From an uncultured candidate division Zixibacteria bacterium (GTDB lineage Bacteria > Zixibacteria > MSB-5A5 > GN15 > FEB-12), in contig CAVTJJ010000003.1 of assembly GCA_963735035.1 (NCBI GenBank), positions 704,001-768,000 of the forward strand: 64,000 nt of DNA, given 5' to 3'. This document shows, piece after piece, positions 1,088 to 62,788 of this stretch; the first letter of the stretch is position 1, and the number at the start of each line of letters is the position of its first letter. Under the pieces are notes generated by a model that was given only the letters and a program-made list of their open reading frames with translations, searched no databases and was not told the DNA's origin. Position numbers and translations under genes: made by a program.

Positions 1088-1396
1088 CTACTGTTTGATG
1101 CCCGGTCGGTAGGCGAACTCGGATGCTGCCATCGACGCCGGTACCGGGTAGAAGCCCGCCCCCGAGCAGAGCGGACAGGGATTGCGATCGACCTGTCTGA
1201 CTTCGATCAGGCCGGTCCCGTGGCAGGCGTAGCACGGGTTTTCAAGGGCGTCGAACCCTTTCCCGTCACAGTACATGCACTTGTGCGAATGGTCCGGTGT
1301 GATACACCGATTATCTACCCAGCCCCGGCCGCGGCACTCCGGGCAGACTTTTGGTTCGCCCTCGGGCGACGGCTTCTTTCTGGTCTCTGTCCCCAT
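1088..1396 (-). CDS. Stand-alone DnaJ-type zinc-finger protein
   Basis: Four CxxCxGxG motifs (CPECRGRG, CMYCDGKG, CYACHGTG, CPLCSGAG) and no J-domain. GAGGTG RBS before the ATG. Confidence 0.8.
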   Translation of the reverse strand: MGTETRKKPSPEGEPKVCPECRGRGWVDNRCITPDHSHKCMYCDGKGFDALENPCYACHGTGLIEVRQVDRNPCPLCSGAGFYPVPASMAASEFAYRPGIKQ

Positions 1397-1871
1397 ACTT
1401 CACCTCGCACGTTCTATTGCGAATCCATTCTTCGACTAAAGTAATCGCCGGCTCCACAGCCGCCGTAACGGCCGGGGTCATCTCTTCCGACAGCGTCTGC
1501 ACATCGGCCGCTTCCACGGCCAGGACGTCTATATTCTCCGGCATCTCATAACCAAGAAGCCTTCCAAGCCGGAGCGCCGTCGGCAGACTTATCTCGTGAC
1601 TTGATACCAACCCTCGACCGGGGGTCCAATATCCGTTCGGGAAGAAATGCAGTGTCCCTGGAATCGCTTTGCTCGTCAGCACTGTATCCACTACCAGCAC
1701 GGCCTCACGGCTGTGCATCAGATCCAGCAATGCGAACCCCGCCACCGAGGCGGTACAGACATCGGCGCGTTCGGTCACTTCCGGCCGAGTCAGACTCTCC
1801 CCCACCCGCAGACCAAAAGCGTCGTCGGTCAGCACATCATTTCCCAGACACAGGATCAGAATCGGTTTCAA
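1311..1871 (-). CDS. Hydrogenase maturation protease (HycI/HyaD/HoxW family)
   Basis: ILCLGNDVLTDDAFG, VLVVD and SSHEI motifs. TTG start overlaps the mvhA stop. The 3' end overlaps the next gene. Confidence 0.9.
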   Translation of the reverse strand: MKPILILCLGNDVLTDDAFGLRVGESLTRPEVTERADVCTASVAGFALLDLMHSREAVLVVDTVLTSKAIPGTLHFFPNGYWTPGRGLVSSHEISLPTALRLGRLLGYEMPENIDVLAVEAADVQTLSEEMTPAVTAAVEPAITLVEEWIRNRTCEVKYGDRDQKEAVARGRTKSLPGVPRPGLGR

Positions 1872-3353
1872 CCGTCTCTCCGTTTCGAGTCAATAATTTC
1901 GCCGGTCGCAGCGTCGTGCACAATCAGCTCCAGCGGCATCTCGCCCGGCAGCGAATGCGTGGCGCATCCGAAACAGGGATCGTACGCCCTAAACGCCATC
2001 TCAATCCGGTTGAGAATGCCTTCGGTGAGCGTCGTACCCTTCTTGATCAAGCCTTCCGCGGCCCGTTTGATTGACATAGTAATCGGGGCATTGTTGTTCG
2101 TGGTACCGACGATCAGGTTGGCTTCGGTGATGATCCCTCGGTTGTCGGTCTTATAATGATGCGTCAGCGTTCCCCGAGGCGCTTCGACAATGCCAACCCC
2201 TTCGCCCACAATGCCTGTCGGCGGCTCGAAGATCTTGTCGGATGTGATTTCTTCATCCTGGGCCTGTTGCAGCACTGCCTCGCAGGCAAACACCAGCTCA
2301 ACTACCCTCGCCCAGTGCGTGGCCAGAGTAGCGTTGACCGGCGTTCTGCCGGTACGATCCCCGGTCAGCGTCTCATAGAACCGTTCGTACTCAGCTTGAG
2401 CCAGCGGCGTAGCCATACCGTCCGAGACGTTGAGCCGACTCAGCGGAGTCGCCTTGTAGACGCCTGAATCCTTGCCGTCGATAAATCCCTTCCACCCGAC
2501 CTTCTTCAGGAACGGATATTTCAGATAGCTATATGGCTCGACATGCTCGGCGACATATTCGAGATAATCTTTCGGCGCATATTTGGCGTGTTCGGTGCCG
2601 TCGGGCGCGGTCACCCGCACCATACCATCATAGAAAGTCACCTTGTTGTTGGCGTCCACCAGCCCCATGTTGTACGTCTTGTGGCAGAACAGGTCACCTA
2701 CTATCAGATTGACATAATGCTTTGTTCGCAAGAACCACGTCGTTGAGCACCTGAATCGTAAACTTGGCGAACTCAACCATATCCCGGCCGATCTTGATCA
2801 TCTCCTGCTGTTCTTCCTTGGTGACCCGTTTGGACATGCCTCCCGGAAGCGCCGTCACCGGATGTACTTTCTTGCCGCCGATGATCTCGATAATTCTCTG
2901 ACCGCGCGCTCTTTGAGCAATGACCTTCTTGCCGGCGTCGATGCCCACCTTGGCGATTACGCCAAGGATATTGCGCTCAAGCGGGGGCGCATCAGGACCG
3001 CAAACGAAATCCGGTCCGCCCAGAGCATAGAAATGGGTGGTATGATCGCCCGCATAGAATCCGTTATAGACCAGTTCGCGTAGCTTGCGCGCCGCCGATG
3101 GAATCGTCACTCCGTAAACCGCATCGGCCGCTTTCGCCGCCGCCATGTGGTGGGCATCGGGACAAACCCCACAAATGCGGGTCGTAATGCGACACATCTC
3201 CTCAACCGGCCGCCCAACACAGAACTTCTCGAACCCGCGCAGTTCCGGCACTTGGAAATAGCAGTTGGCCAGCGAGCCGTCGTCGTTGATGAATAGGTGT
3301 ATCTTGCCGTGGCCCTCGAGCCGGGTGATCGGATCAATCAGGACCGTTCTCAT
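1868..3353 (-). CDS. mvhA: [NiFe]-hydrogenase large subunit, MvhA/group 3c-like; frameshifted near 2722
   Basis: N-part has ITRLEGHG and L1 RICGVC. C-part has EAPRG and L2 RAYDPCFGCATH plus a cleavable tail. Removing one A from AACAAAGCATTAT joins the ORFs as ...VLANKHYVNLIVGD. Confidence 0.9.
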
Positions 3354-4321
3354 ACTTGTACTCTCCTGATCATTGATGCCGGAAGACTGAAACGATAGAA
3401 CGTGCCGACCGGATCGGCGATGGTCCCGATGATCTCGTCGATCTCCTCCGGATCGGTGGAATCAATCACGCTGGCCAGCGCCGAAACCATCTTCGCCCCC
3501 TGATCGCGGACGTTCACCGGAAGGCCATAGCAGCCCCGGCAGGGCACCCCGGCCGTTGAACATTTCGCACCGCAGCCTGCCCGAGTCGCCGGTCCCATGC
3601 AGACAATACCCTGTTCCAGCAGACATAGATTGGCGTCGATCCTGATCTCATGCGGCCGGTAGAATTTCTTGATCTTCTTGATATTCTTTTCGCGCAGACA
3701 TTCATCGCAACAAGTCTTGTCGGTCGCCCCGAGAATCGTCCCTTTCGGGGGCAGCGGTTTGCCGTTTTTCAGGATATCGATCACCGCTTCGACCACTGCC
3801 GCAATCTGATTCGACTGGGGCGGACAGCCGGGAATGATATAATCGACCTCGACCACCTGCGGCAGCGTCCGCACCGTATTCCACAAGTATGGGATGTGAA
3901 GCTCACCCTCGGGGACTTTGACAGTCGGTTGCGGTACTACTACGCTCCCCTTTTCCAAAGAGGGCGACTTCTTGTAGACATAATCCATAATCGCGTCTTT
4001 AGTCACCAGATTGGCCATCCCGGGAATACACCCCTCCGAGGCGCAACTGCCGAACGCACACAGCACCACCGACTTGGCCCGCATGAGCTTGGCCATCTCG
4101 TAGTTTTCGTCGCTGCGAATGGCCCCGTTGAACAAAGTCAGCGTGATTGACTTATCGTCCATCCGACGGATATCGTCATACTTCGTATCCATCGCACATG
4201 GCCAGAAGATCGGGTCGAAGAAATCCGCCACGGCCAGAATCTTCTCCTCGATATCCAGAATTGCGATATCACAACCGCCGCACGACGATGCCCAATAGAT
4301 TGCCAGTTTCGGTTTAGCCAT
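3350..4321 (-). CDS. mvhG: [NiFe]-hydrogenase small subunit, MvhG-like
   Basis: Start at MAKPK (4321). SCGGC, GSCASEG, PGCPP, CLLEQGIVCMGPATRAGCGAKC and CRGCYG motifs. No Tat signal. Confidence 0.92.
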   Translation of the reverse strand: MAKPKLAIYWASSCGGCDIAILDIEEKILAVADFFDPIFWPCAMDTKYDDIRRMDDKSITLTLFNGAIRSDENYEMAKLMRAKSVVLCAFGSCASEGCIPGMANLVTKDAIMDYVYKKSPSLEKGSVVVPQPTVKVPEGELHIPYLWNTVRTLPQVVEVDYIIPGCPPQSNQIAAVVEAVIDILKNGKPLPPKGTILGATDKTCCDECLREKNIKKIKKFYRPHEIRIDANLCLLEQGIVCMGPATRAGCGAKCSTAGVPCRGCYGLPVNVRDQGAKMVSALASVIDSTDPEEIDEIIGTIADPVGTFYRFSLPASMIRRVQV

Positions 4322-4326
4322 GTTTG

Positions 4327-4809
4327 TCACTCCCTGCTCACAACCAAATCGTGGCTCGCGACTGAGGCGTGGCGCGTGTCCGCCTCGCCCGGCTCGAACG
4401 TCCAATCCTTCAGGTGAAGCGGCCCCAGTTCGCGAATCTGTTCGGTAAATTCGCCGATCACTTCCTGGAACCGCACTCCTTCGGACGCCGAGACCCATTC
4501 GAGGCGAAGCCGCCGCTTATCGACCCCCATCGCTTCTAGTAACTTGAGAGTCAGCGGCACGCGACGCATGCACTTGTAGTTGCCCTCGACATAATGGCAG
4601 TCGCCCGGATGACACCCGCAGATCAGGACCCCGTCGGCCCCTTTCTGGAACGCATCCAGCACGAATCCGGGATCGACCCGACCGCTGCACATCACCCGAA
4701 GGCTCAGGATATTGGGGGGATATTTAAGCCGCGCCGTGCCGGCGAGGTCGGCGCCAGTATAACTGCACCAATTGCAGAGGAAACCTATGATCTTGGGTTC
4801 GAAGCTCAT
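4327..4809 (-). CDS. mvhD: MvhD [2Fe-2S] subunit
   Basis: MSFEPKIIGFLCNWCSYTGADLAG, VMCSGRVDP, GCHPGDCHY and WVSASEG. ATGA overlap with the upstream gene. Confidence 0.95.
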   Translation of the reverse strand: MSFEPKIIGFLCNWCSYTGADLAGTARLKYPPNILSLRVMCSGRVDPGFVLDAFQKGADGVLICGCHPGDCHYVEGNYKCMRRVPLTLKLLEAMGVDKRRLRLEWVSASEGVRFQEVIGEFTEQIRELGPLHLKDWTFEPGEADTRHASVASHDLVVSRE

Positions 4810-6564
4810 ACCAACATCCCCTCTATTTGGGCGTAAATTTGTTCGTCGGTGAAATGTCTCGCGACAATCGCACCGGCCGGGCAGGCGGCCACACAGGTGC
4901 CACAGGCTTTGCACAACGCCGAATTCACGACGCTGACTTTCTTATCGGTCAGGTAATCAATCGCATTGTACGGACACAGTTCATTGCATACGCGACAACC
5001 ACCGCAATATTCTTCCTGAATTGCCGCATATGCGGCATCCATCATTATTTCGCGCTGACAAAGTAACTTGAGCGCATGTGAGGCTGCCGCCCCTCCCTGA
5101 GCTACTGTATCCGGAATATCCTTAGCGCCCTGACAGGCTCCGGCCAGGAATACGCCATCGGTGGTTGTCGAAACCGGCCCAAGTTTCGGATGTGCCTCTA
5201 TAAACCAGCCGTCGGCGCCAACTGAAATGTTGAACTTCCTCGCCGTCTCCTTGGCGTCCTTGCGTGCTTCCAGTGCCGTGCAGAGGATCACCATGTCGAC
5301 CGGAATCTCGCGGAACTTGCCTATCAGCGTGTCCTCGCACATGACCAGCAAGTGGCCTTCCTCGCCCCGACGGAACCCCGACGGCACCACTTCGGCTGCT
5401 TTGCCGCGGATAAGATTCACATCTTCATCGAGAATGCGCTGATAGAACTCTTCGTACCCCTTGCCGAAACTGCGCACGTCGATATAGAGTTGGTAGACTT
5501 CCGCCGAGGTCTTTTCCTTCACCAGATGCGAGAACTTGAAAGCGTACATGCAGCAGACCCGACTGCAGTACTTGTGATAGTTTTGATCGCGGCTGCCGAT
5601 GCAGTGCAGAATGGCAATCGCCCGCGGCTCCTCGCCGTTTTCCAGCACGATCTTGCCCCCGGTCGGACCGGCGGCGTTGTTCATCATTTCGAATTCTTCG
5701 GCCGAGATGACATTCGGATACTTGCCGTAGCCGTACTGCTTCATCGGTGTGGGGTCAAAGCTGTCAAAGCCGGTGGCCATGACAACGACGCCAACATCGA
5801 ATTCCTCGAACTGATCCTGATCGTCGTAGTGAATACAGTCTTTCGGGCAGACTTTCGAGCAAACCTTGCACTCACCCGTATTGAAGTGTATGCACTTGTC
5901 CGGATCGATGAACGGGACGTTCGGCACGGCTTGGCGAAACGGCAGCGAAATCGCCGAGTTCGGCCCGAGCGATATCTCGCTGTGTACAATTGAACGCCCG
6001 TGAATTTCTTCCATCTTGATATGCCCGGTCGGACATACACTGGCGCAGGCGCCGCACAAGATACAGTCGTCGCTGCCAGCCTCCGAACGGCGTGGCGACT
6101 TCCCGATAAATGCCCCGGTTACTGAAAGCGAGCGCATGCGCGCCGACGACTTCGTCGCATACCCGCACGCACAGACCGCACAGAATACACGTGTCCTCAC
6201 CCGTGCCCCAGCGCGGCTTGTCGATTCCGAATTGCTCCGCCAACTGCTGCAACACCGGAACCGGCGCGCAGCGACTCATGAGCATTTCGAGATTGACCCG
6301 GCGAGCGTTTATCACACGCGGCGTCGAAGTGTGTATTTCCAGACCGTCCCAGACCGGATAGTTACAGGCCGTGACAATCTTGCTCCAACCTCGGCCGTCG
6401 CGCGCCTCGACCGCACAGATACGGCAGGCGGCGTACGGGGTCATATACGGATAGTGGCAGAGAGTCGGGATGTACGCTCCGAGCGCGCGGGCGCCGTCGA
6501 GAACAAACGCTCCTTCTTCCATCTCCACCGAATGTCCGTCGATCTTTACATTCACTTTGGCCAT
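4806..6564 (-). CDS. hdrA: Fusion of a HydA/HoxU/NuoG-type N-terminal Fe-S domain with the C-terminal half of HdrA; frameshifted near 6084
   Basis: N-part: IPTLCH...ACRIC...TAC [2Fe-2S] and CILCGLCVRVC. Removing one G (TTCGGAG to TTCGAG) continues into PFEAGSDDCILCGACASVCP. Then HdrA motifs AISLPFRQAVP, ATGFD, YGYGKYPNVI, CIGSRD, YCSRVCCMYAFK, GACQGAKDIPD and a terminal 2x[4Fe-4S]. Confidence 0.85.
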
Positions 6565-8585
6565 CAAATCCTCCTACGCCACCGTGGCCGCTTCGCGCCT
6601 GACCGATGTCTCCCAGACCTGAACTGCTTTAGTCTTGAATGCCCGTCGCCTTCACCTCGTTTGACGCGCACGATGGCGTCGTGCTTGCAGATCTGGTAGC
6701 AGGCACCGCACTGGATGCATTTGTCCTGGATGATACTGTGCAGCTCTTTCGGCTTGCCTACAATTGCCTTAGTCGGGCACGGCTTCAAACATGCCACACA
6801 GCCGGTGCATTTCTCGGTAATGGCGTGCGACACTAATTCTTTGCAGACTCCGGCCGGACACCGCTTATCACGAATATGCGCCATGTACTCCTGTCGGAAA
6901 TACTTGACCGTCGACAGAATCGGGTTCGGCGCACTACCGCCCAACTGACAGAGACTGGTATCCACCAGTACCTGTCCTAGTTCTTCCAGCAGTGACAGAT
7001 CTTCGACCGTCCCTCGACCATCGCAGATCCGGGTCAGCACTTCCAGCATGGTCCGGATGCCTTCCCTGCAGGGCAGACACTTCCCGCAGCTTTCTTCCTG
7101 CAGGAAAGTGAGGAAATACCTGGCGACATCGACCATACATGAATCTTCGTCCATCACAATCATGCCGCCCGAACCCATCATCGAACCGACTTTGGTGAGC
7201 TCGTCGAAATCTACCGGCAGATCAAGCAGGCTAACCACTTCCTGATCATCGCGGATATCGCCGTGCGCCACCAGGCTGTCGTGAATCTTCTTCTCACCGG
7301 TTTCGACTATCAGCGTCCCCCCCGACGGCCCACCGGTTTGCACCGCCTTGAATCTCTTGGTGCCTCTCACACCGCCACCGATATCATATAGGATTTCGCG
7401 AAGTGTGATGCCCATTGGCACCTCGACCAGACCGGTGTTGTTGACCTTGCCGGTCAGGGCGAAGACCTTGGTTCCCTTTGAGCCCTCGGTTCCGATCCTG
7501 GCATAGGCTTTGGCCCCCATCTCGATGATGATTGGGACATTGGCCCAGGTCTCTACGTTATTCAGGTTGCTCGGCTTGTCCCACAAGCCGGATTCGACTG
7601 TGTGAATATACTTGGCGCGGGGTTCGCCGGTTTTCCCTTCGAGCGAGGCCATCAGCGCGGTCGATTCTCCGCACACAAACGCCCCGCCGCCACGCGAAAC
7701 CTCGATGTCGAAATCGAATCCCGTCCCGAGTATGTTCTTCCCCAGAAGGCCGCATTCACGGGCCGCGTCGATTGCGATCATCAGATTCTTGACCGCGAGA
7801 GGATACTCGTTGCGCACATAGACGAACCCCTCATTGCTGCCTATGGCATACGCACCGATAATCATCCCCTCGATAACAGAATGCGGATTGCCTTCGAGCA
7901 GGGAGCGATCCATGAACGCGCCGGGATCGCCTTCGTCCGCGTTGCAGATGACATATTTCGGCGTTCCTTTCGCCTTTCGACAGGTCGCCCATTTCTTGCC
8001 CGTGGGATATCCTCCACCCCCTCGACCACGCAGACCGGAGGTAGCTACTTCCTGAATGATCTCCTCAGGCTTCATCTTGAGCGCCTTAACCATGGGTCCG
8101 TATCCGCCCAGAGCGATGTAGTCACCTATCGAAGTCGGATCCATGTGACCGTTCTTCCCGAAAATCAAGCGCATCTGCTTTTTGTAGAACGGTATATCTG
8201 CTTCGTGAATGATCGTCTCTTTGGTAAGCGGATCGCTATAGAGCAGGCGGTTGACTATCTGCCCCGCTTTGATCGTCTGGTTGACTATCAGCTTGGCATC
8301 GGACGCTTTCACCCGCTGATAGAAGATGCCCTGCGGATGAACCACCACCAGCGGACCCCGCTCACAGAAACCGTGACACCCGGTTCGTTTTAGTTCGACT
8401 TCTTTATCCAGGTGACCCGCCACGAGTGCCTCGTGAAGGGCATTGCTTACCTTCTCGCAACCGCACGCCAAACATCCGGTCCCCGAGCAAACTGAAATAG
8501 TTGTTCTCTCTTCCTTACGGTGCTTGACGAGACTGGCTCGAAATTCTTCGAGCCCCGCAGCCGAGGTGATCCGTGTCATGTTCAT
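6564..8585 (-). CDS. NAD(H)/FMN subunit, long HydB/BfuB (NuoF-like) type
   Basis: N-terminal thioredoxin-like [2Fe-2S] (CSGTGC...GCHGFC), [48 protein letters not shown] and C-terminal 2x[4Fe-4S]. The last ~30 residues may be out of frame. Confidence 0.92.
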
Positions 8586-9100
8586 GATTCCTCCTCACCC
8601 TCTGCAGCACCGGTCGCTTTGCCCTTCAACCCATCAAGCATGCGGTCGACTTTCGACACCGTCATGTTGCCGTAATAGACTTCATCAGCCGTCACCAGCG
8701 GCCCCAGGGCGCAGGCCCCGAGACAGTTCACCGTCTCCAGGCTGAATTCCCGGTCGTCGGTAGTCAGGCCGGGTTTGATGCCCAGCGACGTCTCCAGCCT
8801 GTCCACAATGACCGACGCCTGGCGAACGTGACAGGCCGTCCCGGTACAGACACAGATGTGATGCTTCCCCTTAGGGGTCAGACTGAATGAGCGATAGAAC
8901 GTGGCCACACCAAATACCTGGGCCACCGGCAGCTCCATCTTCCTGGCCACCAACTTGAGGGCTTCAATCGGCAGGTAGCGATAATGCTTTTGCACATCCT
9001 GAAGGATCATGATGAGGGCGGTTTGTTTCGCCTCATACTTGTTGACGATACTATCGATCGCTTCGGCCAGATCGTAGTGGCTCTGCACGGCCGTTGTCAC
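8582..9100 (-). CDS. NuoE/HydC/HoxE-type [2Fe-2S] subunit
   Basis: [14 protein letters not shown] and [12 protein letters not shown] start overlaps the hdrA-N stop, with a GGAGG RBS. Confidence 0.93.
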
Positions 9101-10071
9101 TTCGAGCCTCCTTCCACCGGCACCGACAGCGGCTCCGGCATCGGCTGCGCGCCGGTCAGCAGGGTCAAATCGTGGTCGGGACCCAGGACACCACGATGAC
9201 TCATGTCGAGCGCCTTCCCTTCTCTGACCACCTGCTTACCGAGAAACAATCTTCGCTCGCGGGGATACGGCTTGCTGGGACACGCCTCGTAACATGAGCC
9301 GCAACTGTTGCACAGGGTCGGATCGACATAGCGCGCCTTCTTACGAACCTTCACTTTGAAGTTGCCTATGTATCCCTTGACTTCCTCGACTTCCGCATAA
9401 GTCATCAATTTGATATGCGGATGCTTCCCCACCGATACCATCTTGGGAGTCAGAATACAGGCGGCGCAATCAAGCGTGGGAAAGGTCTTGTCGAATTGTG
9501 ACATGTGGCCGCCGATCGACGGCTCTCTCTCGACCAGCACCACTTCAAAACCGGCGTCGGCAATTTGCAGGGCCGCTTCGATTCCGGCGATACCGCCCCC
9601 GACAATCAATACCCGCTGGAAGATCGGTACCCGGCGCATTTCGAGCGCTTCGTGGAACTTCACCCGCGCCACCGCGCCGCGCAGCAGAGCGAGCGCTTTG
9701 GTGGTCGCCATCCGAGGATCGACTGTTACCCAACTTACCTGCTCGCGAATATTGGTCATCTCAAAGAAATACCGGTTCAGGCCGCCGTCCTCGACCGCTT
9801 TACGGAAAGTCGCTTCGTGCATGAGCGGACTGCACGCCGCCACCACTACCCGATCGAGTTTCAGTTCTCTGATATCCTTCTGAATGAGTTCCTGTCCGGG
9901 GTCCGAACACATGAATCGATAGTGACGCGCGATCACCACTCCCGGCGCTTCGGCTATGGTCTCTGCAACTTTGACCACATCAACCGTCTTGGCGATATTC
10001 GTCCCGCAGTGACAGATATACACTCCCACCCGGGGGGTACCATTGCCGGACGCATGTTCAAGCGAGCTCAT
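9097..10071 (-). CDS. hdrA: Heterodisulfide reductase subunit A, N-terminal half only
   Basis: RVGVYICHCGTNI, MCSDPGQ, VAACSP, NIREQ, IVGGGIAG, DKTFPTLDCAAC, then KARYVD-CNSCGSCYEACP. It ends there with a non-homologous tail. Confidence 0.92.
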   Translation of the reverse strand: MSSLEHASGNGTPRVGVYICHCGTNIAKTVDVVKVAETIAEAPGVVIARHYRFMCSDPGQELIQKDIRELKLDRVVVAACSPLMHEATFRKAVEDGGLNRYFFEMTNIREQVSWVTVDPRMATTKALALLRGAVARVKFHEALEMRRVPIFQRVLIVGGGIAGIEAALQIADAGFEVVLVEREPSIGGHMSQFDKTFPTLDCAACILTPKMVSVGKHPHIKLMTYAEVEEVKGYIGNFKVKVRKKARYVDPTLCNSCGSCYEACPSKPYPRERRLFLGKQVVREGKALDMSHRGVLGPDHDLTLLTGAQPMPEPLSVPVEGGSK

Positions 10072-10952
10072 ACCGCCACCCCTTCCGCCAGCGCCCGAAG
10101 TTTGACCGGATCTACCAGCAACTTATCCAGCCCCATCTCGTGCGATGAAATCCCCAGCGCCGCCCCTACCAGATGACTGAAATAGACCACCGGAATCTTG
10201 AAATCGCGCCCAAACGTCTTGCTGATCTTGCCCTGATAGGCTTCGAGATTCATCTGACAGAGCGGACAGGCGGTGGCAATTATCTCGGCGTTGGTGTCGT
10301 TGGCCGCCTGAAGCAGCTTCATGTTCAGATCGAGCGCGACGTCTTCCTGGGTGGTCATCAACATACCACCGCAGCAGCGTACTTTACAGGGGTAAGGGAC
10401 CACCTCGGCTCCCAGCGCGGTCAGCAGTCGATCCATCGTAACCGGTTCGTCGACATCGTCGAAATGCCCGTGCGGCCGGACGATCTGGCAGCCGTAGTAG
10501 GTCGCCACCCTGATGCCCGCCAGACTGTGCTTCATCCTGGCCTTGATCGCCGGAAGCCCGAAATCGTTTACCAGGATATCAAGCGGGTGCCGGACATCGA
10601 CCAGCGTGTCATACTTAAGTCCCGCCGCCGCCAGGGCTTCGTTGATCTTGGCGCGTTCTTTCGGATCCCACGCGATGTGGCGATTGGTCTTCCGTAGAAT
10701 CGTGTAACAACTGCTGCAAGGGGCGCATATCTGCATGCCCATGTTCTGCGCCAGTGCCAGATTGCGGGCGCTTATCGCGTAGCCCACAATCTTCTTGACC
10801 GACATGTACATGGTCGCGCCGCAGCAGTTCCAGTCCTCGATTTCGTGCAGGGCGATCCCGAGCGTCTTGAAAATAGCCCGGATCGACTTGTCGTACGGAC
10901 TGGCGGTGTGTTCCAGGCTACAGCCTGGATAGTATGCATATTGGAGCATCAT
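10068..10952 (-). CDS. hdrB: Heterodisulfide reductase subunit B (CCG domains)
   Basis: YYPGCS, DWNCCGA, CSSC, YYGCQ, RCCGG and ACPLCQMNL. Confidence 0.95.
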   Translation of the reverse strand: MMLQYAYYPGCSLEHTASPYDKSIRAIFKTLGIALHEIEDWNCCGATMYMSVKKIVGYAISARNLALAQNMGMQICAPCSSCYTILRKTNRHIAWDPKERAKINEALAAAGLKYDTLVDVRHPLDILVNDFGLPAIKARMKHSLAGIRVATYYGCQIVRPHGHFDDVDEPVTMDRLLTALGAEVVPYPCKVRCCGGMLMTTQEDVALDLNMKLLQAANDTNAEIIATACPLCQMNLEAYQGKISKTFGRDFKIPVVYFSHLVGAALGISSHEMGLDKLLVDPVKLRALAEGVAV

Positions 10953-11536
10953 CCTTCTCCAAATTCATTGGCCTTATTGATGATGGCCCGTATGTCTTTT
11001 ATTCTTCTTAACTTTCTTGGAATCAAGCCCATCCGCCCCCGGCGAATCATCGACCACCCCATACCGGCGTTCGAAATAAGACGACTGATTTCGGTCCGCG
11101 CGAAATACCGGATGCCCAACCCCAACTCATAGTTGCGGCCGTACCTATAGACGTTATCCACAAAAGCTCCCGACAGTACGTGCACGAGGAAGCGGCCCGG
11201 ATACATCTTCTTCGCCATCGCAATCCGCTTCAGAGCGTACATGGTGTCAGTCACCCGGATGTCCGCGGGACAGCGGACCGTACATGAATAGCATGATGCG
11301 CAGAGCCAGATGGCTCGGCTTTGCAGTATCTCTTCAATATGGCCGGCCCGAAACATGGCCACGATCTGACGAGGGGTCAGGTCCATGGCATAGGACACCG
11401 GACAGGTCCCCGTACAGGTTCCGCACTGCAGACAGCGCTTAATCTTGAACCCCTCCGGAAAACTTCCGACCTGTTCCCAAAAGGCCGCCCGAAGCTCGGC
11501 CTCCTTTTTAGGGAGAAATTCGATCTTCCCTATCAT
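10949..11536 (-). CDS. hdrC: Heterodisulfide reductase subunit C
   Basis: CLQCGTCTGTCP and WLCASCYSCTVRCP; first gene of the operon. Confidence 0.95.
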   Translation of the reverse strand: MIGKIEFLPKKEAELRAAFWEQVGSFPEGFKIKRCLQCGTCTGTCPVSYAMDLTPRQIVAMFRAGHIEEILQSRAIWLCASCYSCTVRCPADIRVTDTMYALKRIAMAKKMYPGRFLVHVLSGAFVDNVYRYGRNYELGLGIRYFARTEISRLISNAGMGWSMIRRGRMGLIPRKLRRIKDIRAIINKANEFGEG

Positions 11537-11725: not shown

Positions 11726-11988
11726 GTTACACGTTTGTAACATGGTCTATTAAGACTAATATTAACGCAATCTAATACGCTATATTACTGTGAGTTAGTA
11801 CCAGCTAACATAGTCTCCATCGCCCTCAAATTCGCTCAGGACAGACGTTGTAACCATGAGGTGACAACTTGGATGGTTTGTCACAAAGCAGTGACATATA
11901 CTCCCCCGGGGGAAATTTGAAACGAAATTGCTCCATCCGCCTCGTGAATATGACCCAATTCCACCCCCTTCTGTCACTGAGAAGTGAC
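11726..11988. promoter_or_regulatory. Array of GTNAC-N6-GTNAC palindromes, candidate TetR operators
   Basis: 11726 GTTAC-N6-GTAAC, 11850 GTAAC-N6-GTGAC, 11880 GTCAC-N6-GTGAC and 11973 GTCAC-N6-GTGAC. The last abuts a TTGACA at 11989. Confidence 0.6.
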
Positions 11989-12080
11989 TTGACAGAATCC
12001 AATTTGATTTGCAGTCTACCTTATCGACTGCACTCAAACCGACGGCTCCGTTCGGGACAGCCGTCCAAGGAGTAGGTCCG

Positions 12081-12704
12081 ATGATTCGAGACAAAGAGGC
12101 CACTCGGGCCAGGATTCTTGCCGCCGTGGGAACCGTTCTCTCGCGCCGGGGCTTTGCGAAATTCGGGATCAATTCAATCGCCAAGGAGGCCGGAGTAGAC
12201 AAGGTATTAATCTACCGATACTTCGGCGGTCTCGATCGGCTCTTGAAAGCTTACGCCGAGGAAAATCTGGACGCGTACACGATTCCCCCACTGGCCTGGC
12301 CGCCGCACGAGAAGAACATTCCCCCCGCCCTGACCACTTCGGTGCTGTTGCGCGACCAACTCGAGGAACTCCGCCGACGACCTGTCGCACAGGAGACGCT
12401 CCGATGGGAATTGCAGAGCCCCAACACTCTCACTGATCTGATAGCGACGGCTCGGGAAAAGATGGCGAAAGAGTATCTCGCGCGACTCCCCTTCGATCAT
12501 GAGAAACATCCCGACTGCGATCTCGGCGCCCTCTTCGCCCTGCTTCACGCCGGCATTACCCATATGGTCGCCAGCGCCCCGAAGCTTGACTATTACCAGG
12601 GCATTGACTTGAAATCAGCACGCGGCTGGAAGCGGATCGAGCAGATGATCGATGCTCTGGTGCAGGCCTATTTCGGTCGGCATGCGGCACAGCCTTCGAA
12701 ATAG
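12081..12704 (+). CDS. TetR/AcrR-family regulator
   Basis: ATG at 12081 after AAGGAG. GINSIAKEAGVDKVLIYRYFGG is a TetR HTH. Confidence 0.93.
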   Translation: MIRDKEATRARILAAVGTVLSRRGFAKFGINSIAKEAGVDKVLIYRYFGGLDRLLKAYAEENLDAYTIPPLAWPPHEKNIPPALTTSVLLRDQLEELRRRPVAQETLRWELQSPNTLTDLIATAREKMAKEYLARLPFDHEKHPDCDLGALFALLHAGITHMVASAPKLDYYQGIDLKSARGWKRIEQMIDALVQAYFGRHAAQPSK

Positions 12705-17775: not shown

Positions 17776-17852
17776 TACACCCAGGCGAACGGGGACTGAG
17801 CAGTGTTTTTTAATTGTATGTCGTGGTTGCACTTAGGTAGATAGGAAGGGTT

Positions 17853-17867
17853 TGGCACATCTCTTGC
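17853..17867 (+). promoter_or_regulatory. Sigma54 promoter of the RND efflux operon
   Basis: TGGCAC-ATCTC-TTGC is a perfect -24/-12 consensus. Confidence 0.85.
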
Positions 17868-17921
17868 GAATTGCAGGTCGTTATGAAGATATCAAGTACA
17901 TTAATCTATAATGGTGACTGT

Positions 17922-19244
17922 TTGGCGAAGACTCGCATCACCTGGTATGTCCTGGCTGTCATGTTGGGGGCAAGTCTCGCCTTCTCCGCCTCAGCACAGA
18001 CACCCAATTCTCTCGGTCTGGATCAAGTCATCCGAGACGTTGTCCAGCACAACGACCGCATCGCTGCCGCACGTTACATGGAACAAGCCGCCCAGGCCAA
18101 AGTAGGTCCGGCCGGAGCGTGGGACGACCCCATGCTCATGCTCGGAGTACAAAACCTGCCGACCAATTTCGATTTCACGATGGACGATATGACCATGAAG
18201 ATGGTCGGCCTGAGCCAGAACATCCCGTACTCAGGATATAAGCACTTAGCCCGCAAGTCGGCGTCTTCTGAATCAAGAGCATCATCCGACGAACGCCGCG
18301 CGGATGAACTGACTCTGGTGACCTCCGCCAAGCAAGCGTTCTTCGACCTGTATTACCGTCAGCTCAACTTGAAGGCGCTCGAAAGCCAGCGAGAAATTCA
18401 GCAGCAAATCGTAGCTTCGACTACCGCCAAGCTTCGAGTCAATCAAGCCGGACAAGAAGAAGTCCTTGGCTCCCAGGCGGAACTGTGGCGGCTCGAATCG
18501 ACTATCCTCTCCGCTCAGCAGGAACTGACAGCATCGGCCAACAGTCTGTATGTCTTGCGCGGCCTCGACACACCCAAAGACATTCCAGCTTTGAGTGCCC
18601 CCCCGGCCGTAACCGTTCCCGAGTCGAGCGCGGCCTGGTCGGATGCGGCGCGTCAGGTCTATCCTCCCCTGAAACGCCTGAAGAATCAGTCGGAAGCGTA
18701 TGCTTTCTCTGCGCAATCATCCCGACGTATGCGCTGGCCGATGCTTGGACTTTCAGCCAGTTATGGTATACGCACCGGAGAATTCACTATGCCTAGTATG
18801 GGACGCATAATGAGAGACAATATGGTCAGTTTCGGACTGCAGTTCTCGCTGCCGATATTCTCCGGTCGCCAGCAGGGACGGATGGCAAAATCGATGACGG
18901 CAATGCAGATGAGCGCCGACGCAGAATCGGCCCAGTTGTGGCGGGAAGTGCAGTCCGATCTGGCTACCTTGCATCAGCGCGCGCTAAGAATTCAGCAGAG
19001 TCTGGCGCTCTATCGCGATCGCATCGTCCCGGCTTCCGAGGAAGCTTTCCGCAGCGCCCTGTCCGCTTACACGAACAATAATTCGACCCTGGTTTCTTTG
19101 CTGGCGTATTCGTCAGCTGTCTACCGAGACCGTATTACCGCCAACGAACTGGCCAACGATTTAGCAACTACTATGGCACAGGTAGAGCAATACACGACCG
19201 ACCCGAGCGTGTGGGAACCCATAACTTCAGATTCGGGCAAGTAG
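17922..19244 (+). CDS. TolC/CusC-family outer-membrane efflux protein
   Basis: Signal peptide, WDDPMLMLG, SLPIF and coiled-coil pattern; first gene of the RND operon. Start uncertain (17883 ATG or 17922 TTG). Confidence 0.85.
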   Translation: MAKTRITWYVLAVMLGASLAFSASAQTPNSLGLDQVIRDVVQHNDRIAAARYMEQAAQAKVGPAGAWDDPMLMLGVQNLPTNFDFTMDDMTMKMVGLSQNIPYSGYKHLARKSASSESRASSDERRADELTLVTSAKQAFFDLYYRQLNLKALESQREIQQQIVASTTAKLRVNQAGQEEVLGSQAELWRLESTILSAQQELTASANSLYVLRGLDTPKDIPALSAPPAVTVPESSAAWSDAARQVYPPLKRLKNQSEAYAFSAQSSRRMRWPMLGLSASYGIRTGEFTMPSMGRIMRDNMVSFGLQFSLPIFSGRQQGRMAKSMTAMQMSADAESAQLWREVQSDLATLHQRALRIQQSLALYRDRIVPASEEAFRSALSAYTNNNSTLVSLLAYSSAVYRDRITANELANDLATTMAQVEQYTTDPSVWEPITSDSGK

Positions 19245-19285
19245 CACAAGAAGAGCAAGAAGCACGAGAAAGACGAGTAGAGATT

Positions 19286-20871
19286 ATGTCAGACGATCAT
19301 CAACTATACAATCCGGATGACAGCGAAGTGATGCCCGAAGGCGAAGAAGCACCTCCGCCCTACACGCACACCATGGCTATAGTGCGCTGGGTACTCCTGG
19401 GTGCAATGACCCTGTTCGCGGTCGTTATGGTACTTCATTACTTCGGCGCCACCCCCTGGCAGAGCGCGTCCGCTCAGGCGACCCAGTACCACTGCCCGAT
19501 GCACCCCACTTATGTCAGCAACCAACCAGGCGAATGTCCAATATGCGGCATGAACCTTGTCCCGATCGACAAAGAGGGACATGAGATGGCCGCGAGCAAG
19601 GATACCGACGAGCATGGCGGGAATGCCGGGAATGGCAGAACCGGCCAAACCGAAAGCCAAACCAGGGCAGTACACCTGCCCGATGGACCCGGAGAGTAAT
19701 TTCGGACACCCCCGGCAAGTGCCCGATTTGTGGCATGAACCTTGAGCTTGTGCCCCCCGATACGACCACCACCGCTTCGACACCTGCCGCCCCATCGACC
19801 GCGATGCCGATGCCGAATCCATCCCCGGTGCCGGGACTCGTATCCGTGACAATCGAACCACAGCGACTGCAGTTAATCGGCGTGAAGACCGGCCCTGTCG
19901 AAATGCGCAAGATCGAAGGCGGAATCAAACTCGTGGGCTACGTCACGCCCGACGAAACGAAAGTCTCCAATCTGAATATCAGGGTCAGCGGCTGGGTTCA
20001 AAAGCTGTATGTCGACCAGACCGGCCAGTTGGTCTCAGAGGGTCAACCCTTGCTTTCAATATACAGTCAGGATTTATACCAGGCCCAGCAGGACTATCTG
20101 GTAGCGCTGGCGACGTCCGGGCAGATGACGGGTGACGCGGTTCTCGGATCGGCGCGAACGCAAATCGTCGATGCCGCTCGCGAGCGGCTGCGGCTTCTGG
20201 GCATACCCGACGAGGACGTCACCACTCTCGTAGCCGACGGCAAAGCAAGTTCAGAACTGACTCTTCGCAGCCAGTTCACCGGCATCGTCCTCAATAAGAA
20301 TGTCAACCAGGGGCAATTTGTCGGCCCGGGTCAGGACTTGTTTACTATCGCCGATCTCCGAAAAGTGTGGGTCCTCGCCGACGTCTACGAGAAAGACCTT
20401 TCGCAGATTCGTGTCGGGCAGGAAGTCACCGTGACCGCATCGGGAGTCGATGAAGAATTTCAGGGCACCGTGCAATTCATCTATCCCACCGTAGCCGAGC
20501 AGACGCGCACGGCCAAGCTGCGCATCGAACTGTCGAACCCACAGATGAAACTTCGCCCCGGCATGTACGCCGACGTTCGACTCACCGACGACAGCAAGCC
20601 AGTTCTGGCGATGCCGTTCGACGCCTTGATGGACGGCGGCGAGACGCGGTACGCCTTTGTCGTACACAACGGAACTCACTTCGAGCCACGATTGCTCAAC
20701 ATCGGCCGTCGCTCTGACGAATGGGTCGAAGTGCTCTCGGGACTTTCGGCCGGTGAGGTCGTGGTCACCAGCGCCAATTTCCTAATTGATTCCGAGAGTC
20801 GGCTGAAAGCCGCTATATCAGGGATGGGAAGCACTGAACCCAACGCCCATGCCGGCCACAGTGGCATGTAG
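19286..20871 (+). CDS. cusB: CusB-like RND adaptor with two heavy-metal-binding domains; two frameshifts (about 19607 and 19695)
   Basis: TM helix, then YHCPMHP...CPICGMNL. A second motif [24 protein letters not shown] is restored by removing two extra bases. Then the membrane-fusion domain (LRPGMYA, SANFLIDSES). Confidence 0.85.
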
Positions 20872-20888
20872 GAGATGAGAAGATCGAT

Positions 20889-23800
20889 ATGATAAGCGCC
20901 CTGATAGATTTCTGCGCCCGAAACAAGGCGGTAGTGTTCATAGCGACCGTCTTCGCGATTCTGGGCGCATGGTACTCGATCCACAACATCGCCCTCGATG
21001 CGATCCCCGATCTGTCCGACACCCAGGTGATTCTCTACACCGAGTGGATGGGACGCGGTCCCGATCTGGTGGAGGATCAGATCACCTACCCGATGGTGTC
21101 CGCTCTGCTGTCGGCCCCGAAAGTAACCGCCGTGCGCGGGTATTCCATGTTCGGCATGTCGTTCGTATACGTCATCTTCGAAGACGGCACCGACATCTAC
21201 TGGGCCCGCAGCCGGGTGATGGAGTACATGAAGCAGTTCGAGTCCAAGCTGCCGACCGGAATCACTCCAATTATCGGACCTGACGCCACTTCGGTCGGAT
21301 GGGTGTTCCAGTACGCCCTGGTAGACAAGACCGGCAAGCATGACCTGGCTGATCTACGGACGTTTCAGGACTTCAATCTCCGTTATGCACTCTCGGCGGT
21401 CTCGGGAGTCGCCGAGGTAGCCTCAATCGGCGGGTATCAGAAACAATACCAGGTAGAAATCGACCCGACCAAGCTACAGGCGTATGGACTGTCCATAGGC
21501 GATGTTACCCGCGCCATCCGTGCAAGCAACAACGATGTCGGCGGACGCGTTCTCGAGATGTCCGGTCGCGAGTACTACGTCCGCGGACGGGGTTATATCA
21601 AAGATCTCGAAGCCCTGCGGCAAATCTCACTCGGCCGTAGTCCGACCGGCACACCGATCCTGCTCGACAATGTCGCCACTCTCAGTTTCGGCCCGGATAT
21701 CCGTCGCGGCCTGGGCGAGCTGGACGGCATCGGCGAGGCGGTCGGCGGCATCGTGGTCATGCGTTTCGGCGAAAACGCGCTGGATGTAATCGAGCGGGTT
21801 AAACAGAAGATCCAGGAACTTCAGCCCTCGTTTCCGGAAGGTGTCGAGCTCAAGATCGTCTATGATCGCAGCAATCTGATCGACCGGGCCATCCACACCC
21901 TGAAGCACAGCTTAATCGAGGAAGGCATCGTGGTCGCAGCGGTCATTATCATCTTCCTGATGCATTTCGGAAGTTCTCTGGTGCCGATTATAGTCCTGCC
22001 CATCGCGGTCGCACTGGCTTTCATCCCCATGTACTTCTTTGGCATCAATTCCAACATCATGAGCCTGGGAGGTATTGCCATCGCCATCGGCGCAATGGTC
22101 GACGCCACTATTGTACTGGTGGAGAACGCCCATAAACGTCTTGAGAAAGCCCCGCCGGCGCCAGTCGCTCTGAAGTTATCATCGCCGCCGCGAAAGAGGT
22201 CGGCCCCGCTATCTTTTTCGCACAGTTGATCATTACGGTAGGCTTCCTGCCGATTTTCGCCCTCACCGGTCAGGCGGGCAAACTCTTCACACCGCTGGCC
22301 TTCACCAAGACGTTCGCCATGTTCTTCTCGGCCGTCGCGGCGATGACTATCGCTCCGGCCCTTATGATGTTGTTCATGCGCGGCAAAGTTCATCCGGAGT
22401 CCAAGCATCCGGTCTCGAAGCTGCTTATCGCGGTGTACAAACCATTTGTTTACGTGGCTCTCCGTAATCCGAGAACGACCATTGCCATCGGCATTATGGC
22501 GATCATTTCGGCCATTCCAATGATCCCCAAGATCGGCTCCGAGTTCATGCCGCCGCTCAACGAAGGGGACATTCTCTACATGCCGACCACTTTCCCGAAT
22601 ATTGCTATCGAGCAAGCCAAACAGTACATGCAGTACCAGGATCGCGTGATCAAATCTTTCCCCGAAGTGATCTCGGTCTACGGCAAAGCCGGTCGTGCCG
22701 AAACCCCTACCGATCCGGCCCCGCTCAGCATGCTTGAAACAGTCGTGCAGTTGAAACCGCGCGAGGAATGGCGCAAGGTGCCGCAGGAGCGCTGGTACTC
22801 TTCATGGGCGCCGGAATTCATGAAGAAGGCTCTTCGCCCCATTTGGCCGGAAGAACGCATCATCGATTGGAAAGAACTGATCGCGGAATTTGACAAGGCG
22901 ATGCAAATGCCGGGCTGGACCAACGCCTGGACCATGCCTATCAAAACTAGAATCGACATGCTCTCGACCGGTATCCGCACCCCTATCGGCGTCAAAATTT
23001 TCGGAACGAGTCTCGATGAAATCGAACGGATCGGTCAGGAGCTCGAAAAGTCGCTGTCGAAACTTCCCGGTACCCGCTCGGTGTACTCCGATCGCAACAC
23101 CGGCGGGTTCTTTATTGATATCATCCCGGACCGCGAGGCGATAGCCCGCTACGGCCTCACCATGCAGGATGTGAATGACGTCATCGAGGCGGCTATCGGC
23201 GGCATGCCGGTGAGCGTCACGGTCGAAGGCCGCAACCGCTTCTCGGTCAACGTTCGCTATCCCCGCGAACTGCGCCAGAATGTCGACCGACTGAAAGAGA
23301 TCCTCATTCCTCTACCCGCCTCTGCAGGCGACAAATCCAGCAGTGGAATGCCTACCATGGGCGCCCTGCCAACGTTCACCGAACCGCCGCTCCTGGCCTC
23401 GAATGACCCTATAGTCGATTACCAGGCTTTGGCAAAGACTGTACAATTCGCCCAGATGGGCAACATGCCCGCCGGCGGCGGAAGTATTGACCGCCCCTTC
23501 CCCGGCGCCGGAATGAGTTCAGGCCAGATGGCGCCGAGCAAGATGCCGGCCAATGCCGCGGGCATGTCCGGATCATCGAGCACGCCAACTTTCAAGCTCC
23601 CGGAAGGCCGTGCGAGCATTCCGCTGGGCCAGATTGCCGAAGTCAAAATAGTCGGTGGACCGCCGATGATTCGCGATGAAAACGGCATGCTGGTCGGCTA
23701 TGTCTATGTCGACATGGATCAAACCAAGCGCGACATCGGCGGCTATGTGGACGAAGCCAAGAAGACGGTCGCAGCCGAAATTTCGATACCGGCCGGGTAT

Positions 23801-24391
23801 TATCTGAAATGGACCGGTCAGTACGAACTGCTTGAAGCGATGGCCAAGCGCATGAAGATCGTAATTCCGATCACGCTGATTCTGGTCGTCATACTCCTGT
23901 ACCTGAACTTCCGCAACGTGACCGAAACCTTGATCGTGCTCGCCTCGGTACCGTTTGCTCTCGTGGGCAGTATCTGGCTGATGTACTTCCTGGGGTACAA
24001 CTACTCCACCGCGACCCTGGTGGGCATTATTGCACTGGTAGGATTGGCAACCCAGACCGGCATTGTAATGGTGCTATATCTCGATCACGCCTATGAACGG
24101 CGCAAGAAGGCCGGCAAGATTCGTGATCTCAACGATATTATCTGGGCGCACATGGAAGGTACTGTGATGCGCGTCCGACCCAAGCTCATGACGGTGACTA
24201 CTACGGCCGTCGGCCTGATACCGCTCCTTTGGGCTTCTGGAACGGGCGCAGACGTCATGAAGAGAATCGCGGCGCCGATGGTCGGCGGGCTGATTACGTC
24301 TACCTTCCTGACGCTTGAGATTATCCCGGTGGTCTACACTTACTGGCGACTCTGGCAAATTAGGCGGGAGAAGCTCCAATCCCAGCATTAG
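20889..24391 (+). CDS. cusA: CusA/SilA-family heavy-metal RND permease; frameshift near 22157
   Basis: LDAIPDLSDTQV, NIMSLGGIAIAIGAMVD, EFMPPLNEG, RIDMLSTG and MKRIAAPMVGG. Adding one G at CCGCCGGCG joins the two ORFs. Confidence 0.92.
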
Positions 24392-48665: not shown

Positions 48666-48667
48666 GA

Positions 48668-56243: not shown

Positions 56244-56252
56244 AAGTCTGCT

Positions 56253-62784: not shown

Positions 62785-62788
62785 TAGT

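Follow-up and report, generated by a model that had tools for sequence, protein, structure and literature searches.

A split HdrA with a nested Bfu-type module in an Mvh-Hdr operon of a Zixibacteria bacterium, and a candidate Mvh-Hdr-Bfu complex

HdrA, the subunit of heterodisulfide reductase (Hdr) that carries the bifurcating flavin (FAD), is encoded in two pieces in an operon of an uncultured Zixibacteria bacterium, and genes for a Bfu-type, NAD(H)-linked module are nested between the pieces. The operon lies in a window of 64,000 nucleotides (nt), i.e., the whole stretch of DNA that was analysed, from contig CAVTJJ010000003.1 of assembly GCA_963735035.1 (Zixibacteria, FEB-12); the genome is designated G000. 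Sequence alignments place the cut in the inserted ferredoxin domain of HdrA, in the linker that joins its two Cys motifs, and on this evidence both this domain and the FAD domain must each be put together from two chains. On balance it is probable that the products form one soluble Mvh-Hdr-Bfu complex, in which the HdrA halves are reassembled and the Bfu module sits on the low-potential exit. What the sequences show is the gene order, the fusions, the cofactor motifs and conservation; we infer the existence of one complex, its substrates and the direction in which electrons move.

Flavin-based electron bifurcation sets energy limits for anaerobic life. Before 2026, the known bifurcation modules were studied singly, one per enzyme; the structure of a benzoyl-CoA reductase (Bam) then showed that they can be stacked. 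The operon described here appears to stack HdrA and Bfu in the opposite sense from Bam, with Bfu on the low-potential exit and a [NiFe] hydrogenase on the input.

The divided HdrA and its nested genes

A scan for open reading frames (ORFs) and Pfam domains found ten co-directional minus-strand genes at 1311–11536: Hdr genes, nested Bfu-type genes, Mvh genes and a protease. From hdrC onward, the parts are as follows (aa, amino acid residues; E, expectation value).

10949–11536, minus strand: hdrC, 195 aa, ferredoxin-like protein with two [4Fe-4S] clusters (Pfam Fer4_8/Fer4_17, E 6e-11); kept upstream in relatives
10068–10952, minus strand: hdrB, 294 aa, two CCG domains (Pfam CCG, E 1.8e-28, two stretches)
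9097–10071, minus strand: hdrA(N), 324 aa, with the N-terminal cluster domain, the first part of the FAD (thioredoxin-reductase-like) domain, the first of the inserted ferredoxin domain's Cys motifs (M0), and a tail of 59 aa
8582–9100, minus strand: bfuC (nuoE-like), 172 aa, thioredoxin-like [2Fe-2S] protein (Pfam 2Fe-2S_thioredx, E 1.9e-50)
6564–8585, minus strand: bfuB (nuoF-like), 673 aa, with an N-terminal [2Fe-2S], an FMN/NADH core, SLBB, a [4Fe-4S] and a C-terminal pair of [4Fe-4S] (Pfam)
6080–6567, minus strand: bfuA-like N-terminal part of the fusion gene bfuA-like::hdrA(C) (frame A), with a [2Fe-2S] and the first [4Fe-4S] motif (Pfam Fer2_4, E 2.8e-14)
6072–6083, minus strand: site of an extra base that breaks the frame of the fusion gene in the assembly (DNA alignment with four relatives, protein alignment with five in-frame relatives)
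4806–6078, minus strand: hdrA(C) part of the fusion gene (ORFs, in-frame relatives, alignment of relative P0001 to 5ODC_A)
4327–4809, minus strand: mvhD (Pfam FlpD, E 8e-54), with an ATGA overlap with the fusion gene
3350–4321, minus strand: mvhG, [NiFe] hydrogenase small subunit, start at MAKPKL (Pfam Oxidored_q6)
1868–3353, minus strand: mvhA, [NiFe] large subunit, in two ORFs by one extra base near 2716 (Pfam NiFeSe_Hases positions 1–79 and 273–508 on separate ORFs)
1311–1871, minus strand: HycI-type hydrogenase maturation protease (Pfam HycI, E 2e-9)

The content is that of MvhADG-HdrABC (group 3c), i.e., an hdrB with two CCG domains, hdrC, mvhD (FlpD) and both [NiFe] subunits. MvhA shows ICGVCPDAH and AYDPCFGCATH, which match the L1 and L2 patterns of MvhA given in excerpts of PMC6085437. 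The mvhG start was chosen from relatives, the alignments of which begin at residue 59/60 of the long ORF. A TetR-family regulator (11988–12701, plus strand) is divergent and directly upstream of hdrC.

The junctions of the operon are translationally coupled. By their ORF coordinates, hdrC and hdrB share an ATGA start/stop overlap, and the nuoE-like gene begins in a GTGA overlap with hdrA(N), with GGAGG upstream. The overlaps examined read GTGA, ATGA, TGATG and ATGA. An earlier note, made by a model from the sequence alone, had pointed to these overlaps correctly, but counted two GGAGG sites; there are three, before nuoE, nuoF and the fusion gene. The note was right that nuoE-like (8582–9100) and nuoF-like (6564–8585) genes follow hdrA(N), as both ORFs and Pfam matches confirm.

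Alignment of both halves to solved HdrA, which had been proposed as a check, defines the split. HdrA(N) aligns to residues 4–268 of 5ODC_A (E 5e-99) and to residues 11–267 of 8RVU_a (E 2e-102). The second half was followed in P0001, an in-frame relative of 585 aa: its residues 166–584 align to 5ODC_A 245–650, and its residues 4–187 align to residues 5–189 of WorA (9MQX_A; E 7e-35). Together the two halves span residues 4–650 of 5ODC_A. The first HdrA motif is matched twice because the last [4Fe-4S] motif of the BfuA-like domain resembles it; the double match is a matter of motif resemblance, and therefore no HdrA segment is missing. Across the two halves are found the N-terminal cluster, the FAD domain, the inserted ferredoxin domain with its two 4-Cys motifs and the ferredoxin domain at the C-terminus. 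What is not found is a single HdrA polypeptide of about 650 aa; in its place are a 324-aa protein and a fusion of the 585-aa type, with two genes between them. A search of G000 with the HdrA(C) query found no second HdrA(C)-like gene.

Both halves are conserved. In 23 of 23 split HdrA(N) sequences the M0 cysteines C254, C257, C260 and C264 are unchanged, and all 16 cysteines of the four N-terminal motifs of the fusion protein (those of A1, the two BfuA motifs and the second HdrA ferredoxin motif) are kept in 16 of 16 fusion proteins. The statement that hdrA stops just after the first Cys motif needs correction: HdrA(N) continues for 59 residues, and this tail is conserved in 8 close relatives. 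An in-frame fusion of 579–604 aa, with a [2Fe-2S] domain in front, accounts for 113 of the 120 best database matches to HdrA(C); the other seven are 423–546 aa long. Thus the description of the rest of HdrA as fused behind a HydA/HoxU-type domain is borne out by the in-frame relatives but not by the window itself, where the two parts are ORFs in different frames. A real stop between the HoxU-like domain and HdrA(C) in relatives had been named as a finding that would count against the fusion, and there is no stop there.

The two halves are predicted to reassemble. Multimer prediction, also proposed in the earlier note, gave an ipSAE interface score of 0.81 for the window HdrA(N) with P0001, against 0.00 for the best of three controls, although this score may only mirror likeness to known HdrA, because HdrA structures are solved. 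The mark set for ipSAE is reached by 116 of 157 solved complexes and by 2 of 215 mismatched pairs. The runs agreed in at least 88% of contacts, and the partner had a predicted local distance difference test value (pLDDT) of at least 83. In the model, HdrA(N) residues 253–291, i.e., the Cys motif and tail, face fusion residues 198–246, which hold the second HdrA motif, and residues 125–176, which hold the BfuA-like ferredoxin motifs. The predicted interface fits a continuous chain of clusters. When the fusion was modelled alone with AlphaFold2 from a 16-row alignment, the mean pLDDT was 53, with only residues 1–160 confident and HdrA(C) below 50.

The nested genes encode the parts of a Bfu-type core. 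The NuoF-like protein has Pfam domains 2Fe-2S_thioredx (23–103), Complex1_51K, NADH_4Fe-4S and Fer4 (592–638). It thus combines, as BfuB does, an FMN/NADH site with an N-terminal [2Fe-2S] and a C-terminal pair of [4Fe-4S], and its Cys patterns are kept relative to 9MQX_B. A C-x4-C pair that aligns with 9MQX_B may belong to the B2 hinge site (Zn or [2Fe-2S]). By its domains and Cys patterns, the NuoF-like protein appears to have the full cofactor set of bifurcating Bfu/HydB enzymes. BfuC is represented by the NuoE-like [2Fe-2S] protein, and BfuA by Fer2_4 and two 4-Cys motifs. The resulting set, A1, A2 and A4 without the His-ligated cluster, is that of WorA. WorABCSL (9MQX, PMC12318220) provides the closest solved BfuA and BfuB (9MQX_A, 7e-35; 9MQX_B, 1e-229). 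WorA is described as a short BfuA with A1, A2 and A4 but no A3, in which electrons enter at A4 (PMC12318220). The two systems differ in how the third-substrate module is attached: WorSL docks via a C-terminal helix, whereas here HdrA(C) covalently follows the A4 motif.

Position of the Bfu module and direction of electron flow

All six subunits of MvhAGD-HdrABC (5ODC, 8RVU) are encoded here, in the order of bacterial hdrCBA-mvhDGA operons such as the ordinary, unsplit ones of two relatives (L017 and L018, 49–63% identity), and the HdrB with two CCG domains and the FlpD-type MvhD are further likenesses. The operon departs from MvhAGD-HdrABC in that HdrA is two polypeptides, split within the inserted ferredoxin domain, and in that the split encloses three Bfu genes, of which one is fused to HdrA(C). 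The BfuA-like domain occupies the site at which the methanogen enzyme presumably hands electrons to free ferredoxin.

Coupling of HydBC- and HdrA-type modules in series was proposed for Bam-Bfu in 2022 (PMC9304861) and shown structurally for class II benzoyl-CoA reductase, Bam[(BC)2DEFGHI]2 (bioRxiv 10.64898/2026.04.10.717634). These two sources, as well as PMC9012536, PMC12054007 and PMC5861303, are cited here and below from excerpts of their texts. As in Bam-Bfu, the modules here would be joined via a BfuA homologue, with two bifurcation-type centers in series. The topologies differ. In Bam, the Bfu module feeds the HdrA input, BamI connecting to the MvhD-like BamF and the C-terminal ferredoxin-like domain, and the tungsten enzyme is reached from the inserted ferredoxin domain; here Mvh is on the input, and the inserted ferredoxin domain is where the Bfu module sits. 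BamE is a fused HdrA dimer, whereas HdrA here is split. No tungsten-enzyme or aldehyde:ferredoxin oxidoreductase family is among the Pfam matches of the window ORFs scanned. Having no tungsten module match, and a BfuA-like domain fused at the inserted ferredoxin domain instead, the system falls outside Bam-Bfu. It combines two known kinds of system, Mvh-Hdr and Bfu, in a variant whose topology differs from that of Bam.

A second precedent is type III HdrA, published from archaea (ANME-1 HdrA9-11), sometimes with mvhADG, in which an NAD(P)H-linked module lies at the same site between the motifs (PMC9012536; PMC12054007). The type III insert is one in-frame GltD-like domain (FAD plus Fer4_20) and the gene is unsplit, whereas here the module is a three-subunit FMN/Fe-S Bfu. 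The window HdrA has no Fer4_20 and no second Pyr_redox_2 Pfam match, and so it is not of type III.

A full-text literature search, with supplementary cluster tables outside its scope, found no published description of a split HdrA with a nested Bfu module. Desulfotignum has nuoEFG-mvhD-hdrA transcription units, but a split or fusion is not mentioned (PMC4046663), and a split of HdrA is not described in the excerpted parts of PMC10689502, PMC5165239, PMC5736913, PMC11406978, PMC5861303, PMC6085437 and PMC11216029. Of the novelty claimed earlier, the exact architecture stands, as that search found no prior description; the idea of coupling HydBC to HdrA does not, being known from the 2026 preprint.

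The proposed mechanism is as follows. HdrA would be made as two polypeptides that reassemble into a normal HdrA fold, both chains supplying ligands to the two [4Fe-4S] clusters of its inserted ferredoxin domain. The BfuA-like domain, carrying the [2Fe-2S] A1 and the [4Fe-4S] A2 and A4, would dock the BfuBC (NuoF/NuoE-like) core. H2 would be oxidised at MvhA and the FAD of HdrA reduced. The high-potential electron would then pass through HdrC and HdrB to a disulfide. [quoted passage not shown] In the methanogen MvhAGD-HdrABC and in Bam, electrons come to the bifurcating FAD by way of the C-terminal ferredoxin domain plus MvhD, and the low-potential exit is formed by the inserted ferredoxin domain, as given in excerpts of their descriptions. 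Here the entry side keeps MvhD and Mvh, and the exit side is joined to the BfuA-like domain. The suggestion that HdrABC, HydABC-like and MvhADG parts form one complex with two bifurcation-type centers in series fits the comparative evidence, namely the fusions, the Bfu domains and the predicted pairing.

The potentials involved are −414 mV for H2, −140 mV for the heterodisulfide, about −280 to −320 mV for NADH and about −500 mV for ferredoxin (PMC9304861). Since part of the uphill electrons would go to NAD+, the thermodynamic load would be lower, and a weaker oxidant or lower H2 could suffice. In its strongest form, the proposal is of a hard-wired, two-stage cascade, in which the low-potential electron bypasses free ferredoxin, enters the third-substrate port of Bfu and has its energy split again, the coupling running through a ferredoxin domain the two [4Fe-4S] clusters of which use two polypeptides. 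We advance this form only tentatively, at less than even chances. If true, it could allow an H2-oxidising disulfide reductase to work on weak oxidants or at very low H2, with half of the uphill electrons going to NAD+; alternatively, it could yield a reductant well below ordinary ferredoxin.

Several points weigh against the single complex with Bfu on its exit. The exit role of the inserted ferredoxin domain is borrowed by analogy from the methanogen and Bam structures, and the authors who described HdrA with a GltD insert propose the opposite flow, with NADH as donor via this domain (PMC12054007). A genome search of G000 gave no dsrA (TIGR02064) match, and so a Dsr-type substrate is not supported; G000 does encode a DsrC-family protein with a CysB-x10-CysA C-terminus (C3:844848–845144, locus L099), about 77 kb beyond the window. 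With this query, no copy of the operon is seen in two genomes of the same genus (77% and 100% complete), from which it follows that operon loss occurs in the lineage. In a quick maximum-likelihood tree of HdrA(C), described below, a single clade of fused forms is rejected (approximately unbiased test, p = 1.1e-5; log-likelihood 253 lower). Because the fused forms are not one clade, the history is not one clean event; either the split arrangement has more than one origin, or there was exchange or reversion of halves.

The competing account that survives best keeps the complex and reverses the wiring. In it, Bfu confurcates NADH and reduced ferredoxin into HdrA via the inserted ferredoxin domain, and the hydrogenase is an H2-evolving outlet, or else disulfide reduction can draw on either Mvh or Bfu as donor. 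Bfu and HydABC enzymes can run in both directions (PMC9304861), the HydBC-type module of class II benzoyl-CoA reductase is a confurcating input (bioRxiv 10.64898/2026.04.10.717634), and NADH input through a module at this very site has been proposed for type III HdrA (PMC12054007). A HydS-like [FeFe] cassette, of a kind that accompanies reversible HydABC operons, is found in 9 of 30 fused loci (see below). However, in Bam the entry point of the Bfu module is the C-terminal ferredoxin domain with the MvhD-like adaptor rather than the inserted ferredoxin domain, and MvhD and Mvh take up that side here. H2 evolution with thiol oxidation would also seem to have no obvious physiological use. We consider the reversed wiring unlikely and retain the complex with Bfu on the exit side.

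Two clusters of multihaem cytochrome genes in the window (34302–38178, plus strand; 45260–51255, minus strand) encode Cytochrome_C7, c3 and MtrC/MtrF-like proteins of up to 959 aa, with overlapping ORF ends. They suggest a capacity for extracellular electron transfer.

Frame and cofactor sites of the window copy

In the window, the HoxU/BfuA-like ORF (5872–6567) and the HdrA(C) ORF (4806–6200) lie in different frames with a 329-nt overlap. Restoring the frame of the fusion needs one base removed near 6079, and that base is absent in all four relatives aligned there (L019, L013, L021 and L026; DNA alignment). Five in-frame proteins of 583–585 aa bridge the two ORFs. The mvhA gene is broken in the same way: an extra T near 2716 is absent in L019, L013, L014 and L026 by DNA alignment, the two ORFs overlap, and the four relatives aligned across the site stay in frame.

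Judged from these alignments, both extra bases are very probably consensus errors of the assembly. They are read so because the relatives are in frame and other window genes are also broken, and because a NuoF paralogue elsewhere in this 6-contig assembly has internal stops and the cofactor ligands are intact. Among the other broken genes, a cusA/AcrB-like gene is split likewise into 20838–22226 and 22145–24388, with profile positions 4–415 and up to 1018 on overlapping ORFs, and several further gene pairs show suspect overlaps. The family is widespread and the window copy an ordinary member of it; being frameshifted in the assembly, this copy is not the best exemplar.

The other reading of the frameshifts, that they are real and the operon is a decaying relic from which no complex is made, appears improbable. 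It draws on the presence of two single-base insertions within one 10-kb operon, neither of them in a long homopolymer, and on the two same-genus genomes in which the operon was not matched. But apart from the extra bases the ORFs are open, are 73–93% identical to those of relatives and keep all cofactor cysteines. Genes unrelated to the operon are split alike, certainly in the cusA-like gene and probably in the cusB-like gene and antiporter-like subunits, and the broken NuoF paralogue and the 6-contig assembly, cited above, point the same way.

Two further explanations of the breaks were considered and rejected: programmed frameshifting, as the two sites have no common motif and the relatives are in frame, and selenocysteine or stop read-through, as the ORF pairs of the broken genes overlap in different frames.

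The cusA-like gene belongs to a heavy-metal efflux operon of the resistance-nodulation-division type (17841–24388, plus strand) with OEP, a CusB-like HlyD protein with HMBD, and the CusA/AcrB-like protein. The CusB-like gene is probably spread across two frames (19082–19696 and 19585–20868), and the gene breaks of this operon look like further indel errors of the assembly. A membrane module resembling group-4 hydrogenase or complex I (55470–62835, minus strand) encodes Oxidored_q6 with Fer4, 49 kDa and 30 kDa subunits, NADHdh and two Proton_antipo_M subunits; its overlapping ORF pairs (57734–60226 and 59905–62835) resemble frameshifts.

The cofactor sites bear on a different question, whether the NuoEF-like pair is a plain NADH diaphorase of the Hox type. 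The HdrA FAD would then be the only bifurcating center, coupling H2, NAD(H) and a disulfide. Many NuoF homologues are indeed non-bifurcating (PMC9304861; PMC5861303). Yet the extra B clusters are carried by bifurcating Bfu and lacking in non-bifurcating homologues (Schut et al. 2022, PMC9304861), and the NuoF-like subunit has them, i.e., the N-terminal [2Fe-2S] and the C-terminal pair of [4Fe-4S]. Its best solved relatives are 9MQX_B (1e-229), 7T2R_B (1e-223) and 8A6T_B (3e-215). The nearest structures (9MQX, 7T2R, 8A6T, 7Q4V, 9N5U and 7P5H; E 1e-229 to 6e-181) are all bifurcating B subunits, compared with an E of about 1e-104 for Nqo1 of complex I. A plain diaphorase is thus quite improbable. 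Two NuoF paralogues of the Bfu type lie elsewhere in G000, at C2:6605–8461 (52% identity) and at C6:184842–186590 (58–60% identity, with internal stops), and G000 may hold further Bfu enzymes.

Recurrence, variants and descent

Copies that are 80–86% identical are present in the genomes of 5 of 40 relatives. The order hdrC-hdrB-hdrA(N)-nuoE-nuoF-fusion-mvhD-mvhG-mvhA-hycI is the same in all four loci checked (L013–L016); in G030, one of the four relatives checked for synteny, a separate mvhD match was not found. A wider scan, with one genome per species, examined the best 80 of 603 confirmed stretches and found the BfuA-like::HdrA(C) fusion in 30 of the 80 loci. Upstream of these 30 fusions lie nuoF (26), hdrA(N) (25), nuoE (24), hdrB (20) and hdrC (18), and downstream mvhD (23), mvhG (19) and mvhA (17). 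All eight neighbors are present in 12 of the 30, some of the misses being contig ends. For nuoF, two misses are contig ends, and L036 and L058 truly differ. The split order for which the earlier note had proposed a genome search is thus present in many genomes, and the objection it foresaw, that no other genome would show the same split, falls away.

The labels of the carrier metagenome-assembled genomes (MAGs), which are not always reliable, cover at least 12 phyla among the 30 fused loci: Zixibacteria, Ignavibacteria, GN15, Calditrichaeota, Armatimonadetes, Acidobacteriota, Aminicenantes, Verrucomicrobiota, Fidelibacterota, Chloroflexota, Desulfobacterales and Planctomycetaceae. In the protein-cluster look-up, the carrier labels are of MAGs only, with no cultured strain among them. 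The design is common among uncultured genomes labelled Zixibacteria, Acidobacteriota, Aminicenantes, Chloroflexota, Planctomycetota and Desulfobacterota and, if active, it would revise the presumed links among H2, NADH, ferredoxin and thiol/disulfide pools in sediments and soils. In databases the fusion is named "heterodisulfide reductase subunit A" or "4Fe-4S dicluster domain-containing protein", and because of such annotations, surveys that expect a 650-aa HdrA probably miss or miscount the system.

An assembly chimera, in which nuoE, nuoF and hoxU-like genes were misjoined into hdrA, has practically no chance of being right: it can appeal only to the generally error-prone assembly, and it is already refuted by the recurrence of the same order in independent assemblies from many studies, besides which the junctions are translationally coupled and 113 of the best-matching protein clusters hold the fusion in frame. 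The earlier view that the layout is evolved rather than misassembled is upheld by the relatives' loci and the independent MAG assemblies.

The fused loci vary. Nine of the 30 (L030, L027, L029, L031, L032, L035, L037, L038 and L042) have an extra 3.2–4.0 kb between hdrA(N) and nuoE. The cassette of L030 (2593–6312, plus strand), the only one scanned with Pfam, encodes a HATPase_c_2 anti-sigma-type ATPase, an [FeFe]-hydrogenase-like protein that ends in an Fe-S domain (Fe_hyd_lg_C plus PF04060), a PHP protein and a histidine-kinase-type ATPase (HATPase_c). It is a HydS-like sensory set typical of HydABC operons, and its presence suggests that the nested genes came from a HydABC-type operon. In L093, a Planctomycetaceae MAG, HdrA(N) and a NuoE-like domain follow one another in one 558-aa ORF (1920–3596, plus strand); therefore both HdrA halves are covalently tied to Bfu subunits in that lineage. 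L093 also has CBS-domain and PHP/HATPase genes between nuoF and the fusion gene. In L058 (8117–10775), BfuA-like::HdrA(C), itself in two frames, directly follows hdrA(N), with no nuoE or nuoF between. L036 (8569–10503) has a 644-aa fusion without the [2Fe-2S] domain, and no hdrA(N), nuoE or nuoF within 9 kb upstream.

In 10 of the 80 loci, HdrA has an insert of about 1.5 kb at the split site. In L091, where HdrA is a 1144-aa ORF (6634–10068, plus strand), the insert is GltD/NfnB-like (Pfam Fer4_20 plus Pyr_redox_2). For the other nine (L076, L079, L080, L086, L087, L090, L095, L096 and L098), a GltD-type insert is indicated by the spacing.

The HdrA(C) tree mentioned above has 85 rows, i.e., 33 fused, 42 canonical and 10 big-insert forms. 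These groups had been fixed ahead of tree building, from which five contig-end rows, one duplicate locus and one minus-strand locus were excluded. The window sits in a starred, 12-row clade in which all rows are fused. The fused forms labelled Desulfobacterales and Planctomycetaceae and one labelled Dehalococcoidia stand apart, and across the starred branches the fused forms require at least five changes. GltD-insert and canonical forms nest among the fused forms, and 7 of the 10 GltD-insert rows share a major branch with the split form of the window. This pattern suggests more than one origin or exchange of the design, at an HdrA loop that has repeatedly accepted NAD(P)H-linked modules. The labels of the GltD-insert loci are bacterial (Bacteroidota, Aminicenantes, Eubacteriales and Dehalococcoidia), and some of these loci have mvhDGA downstream.

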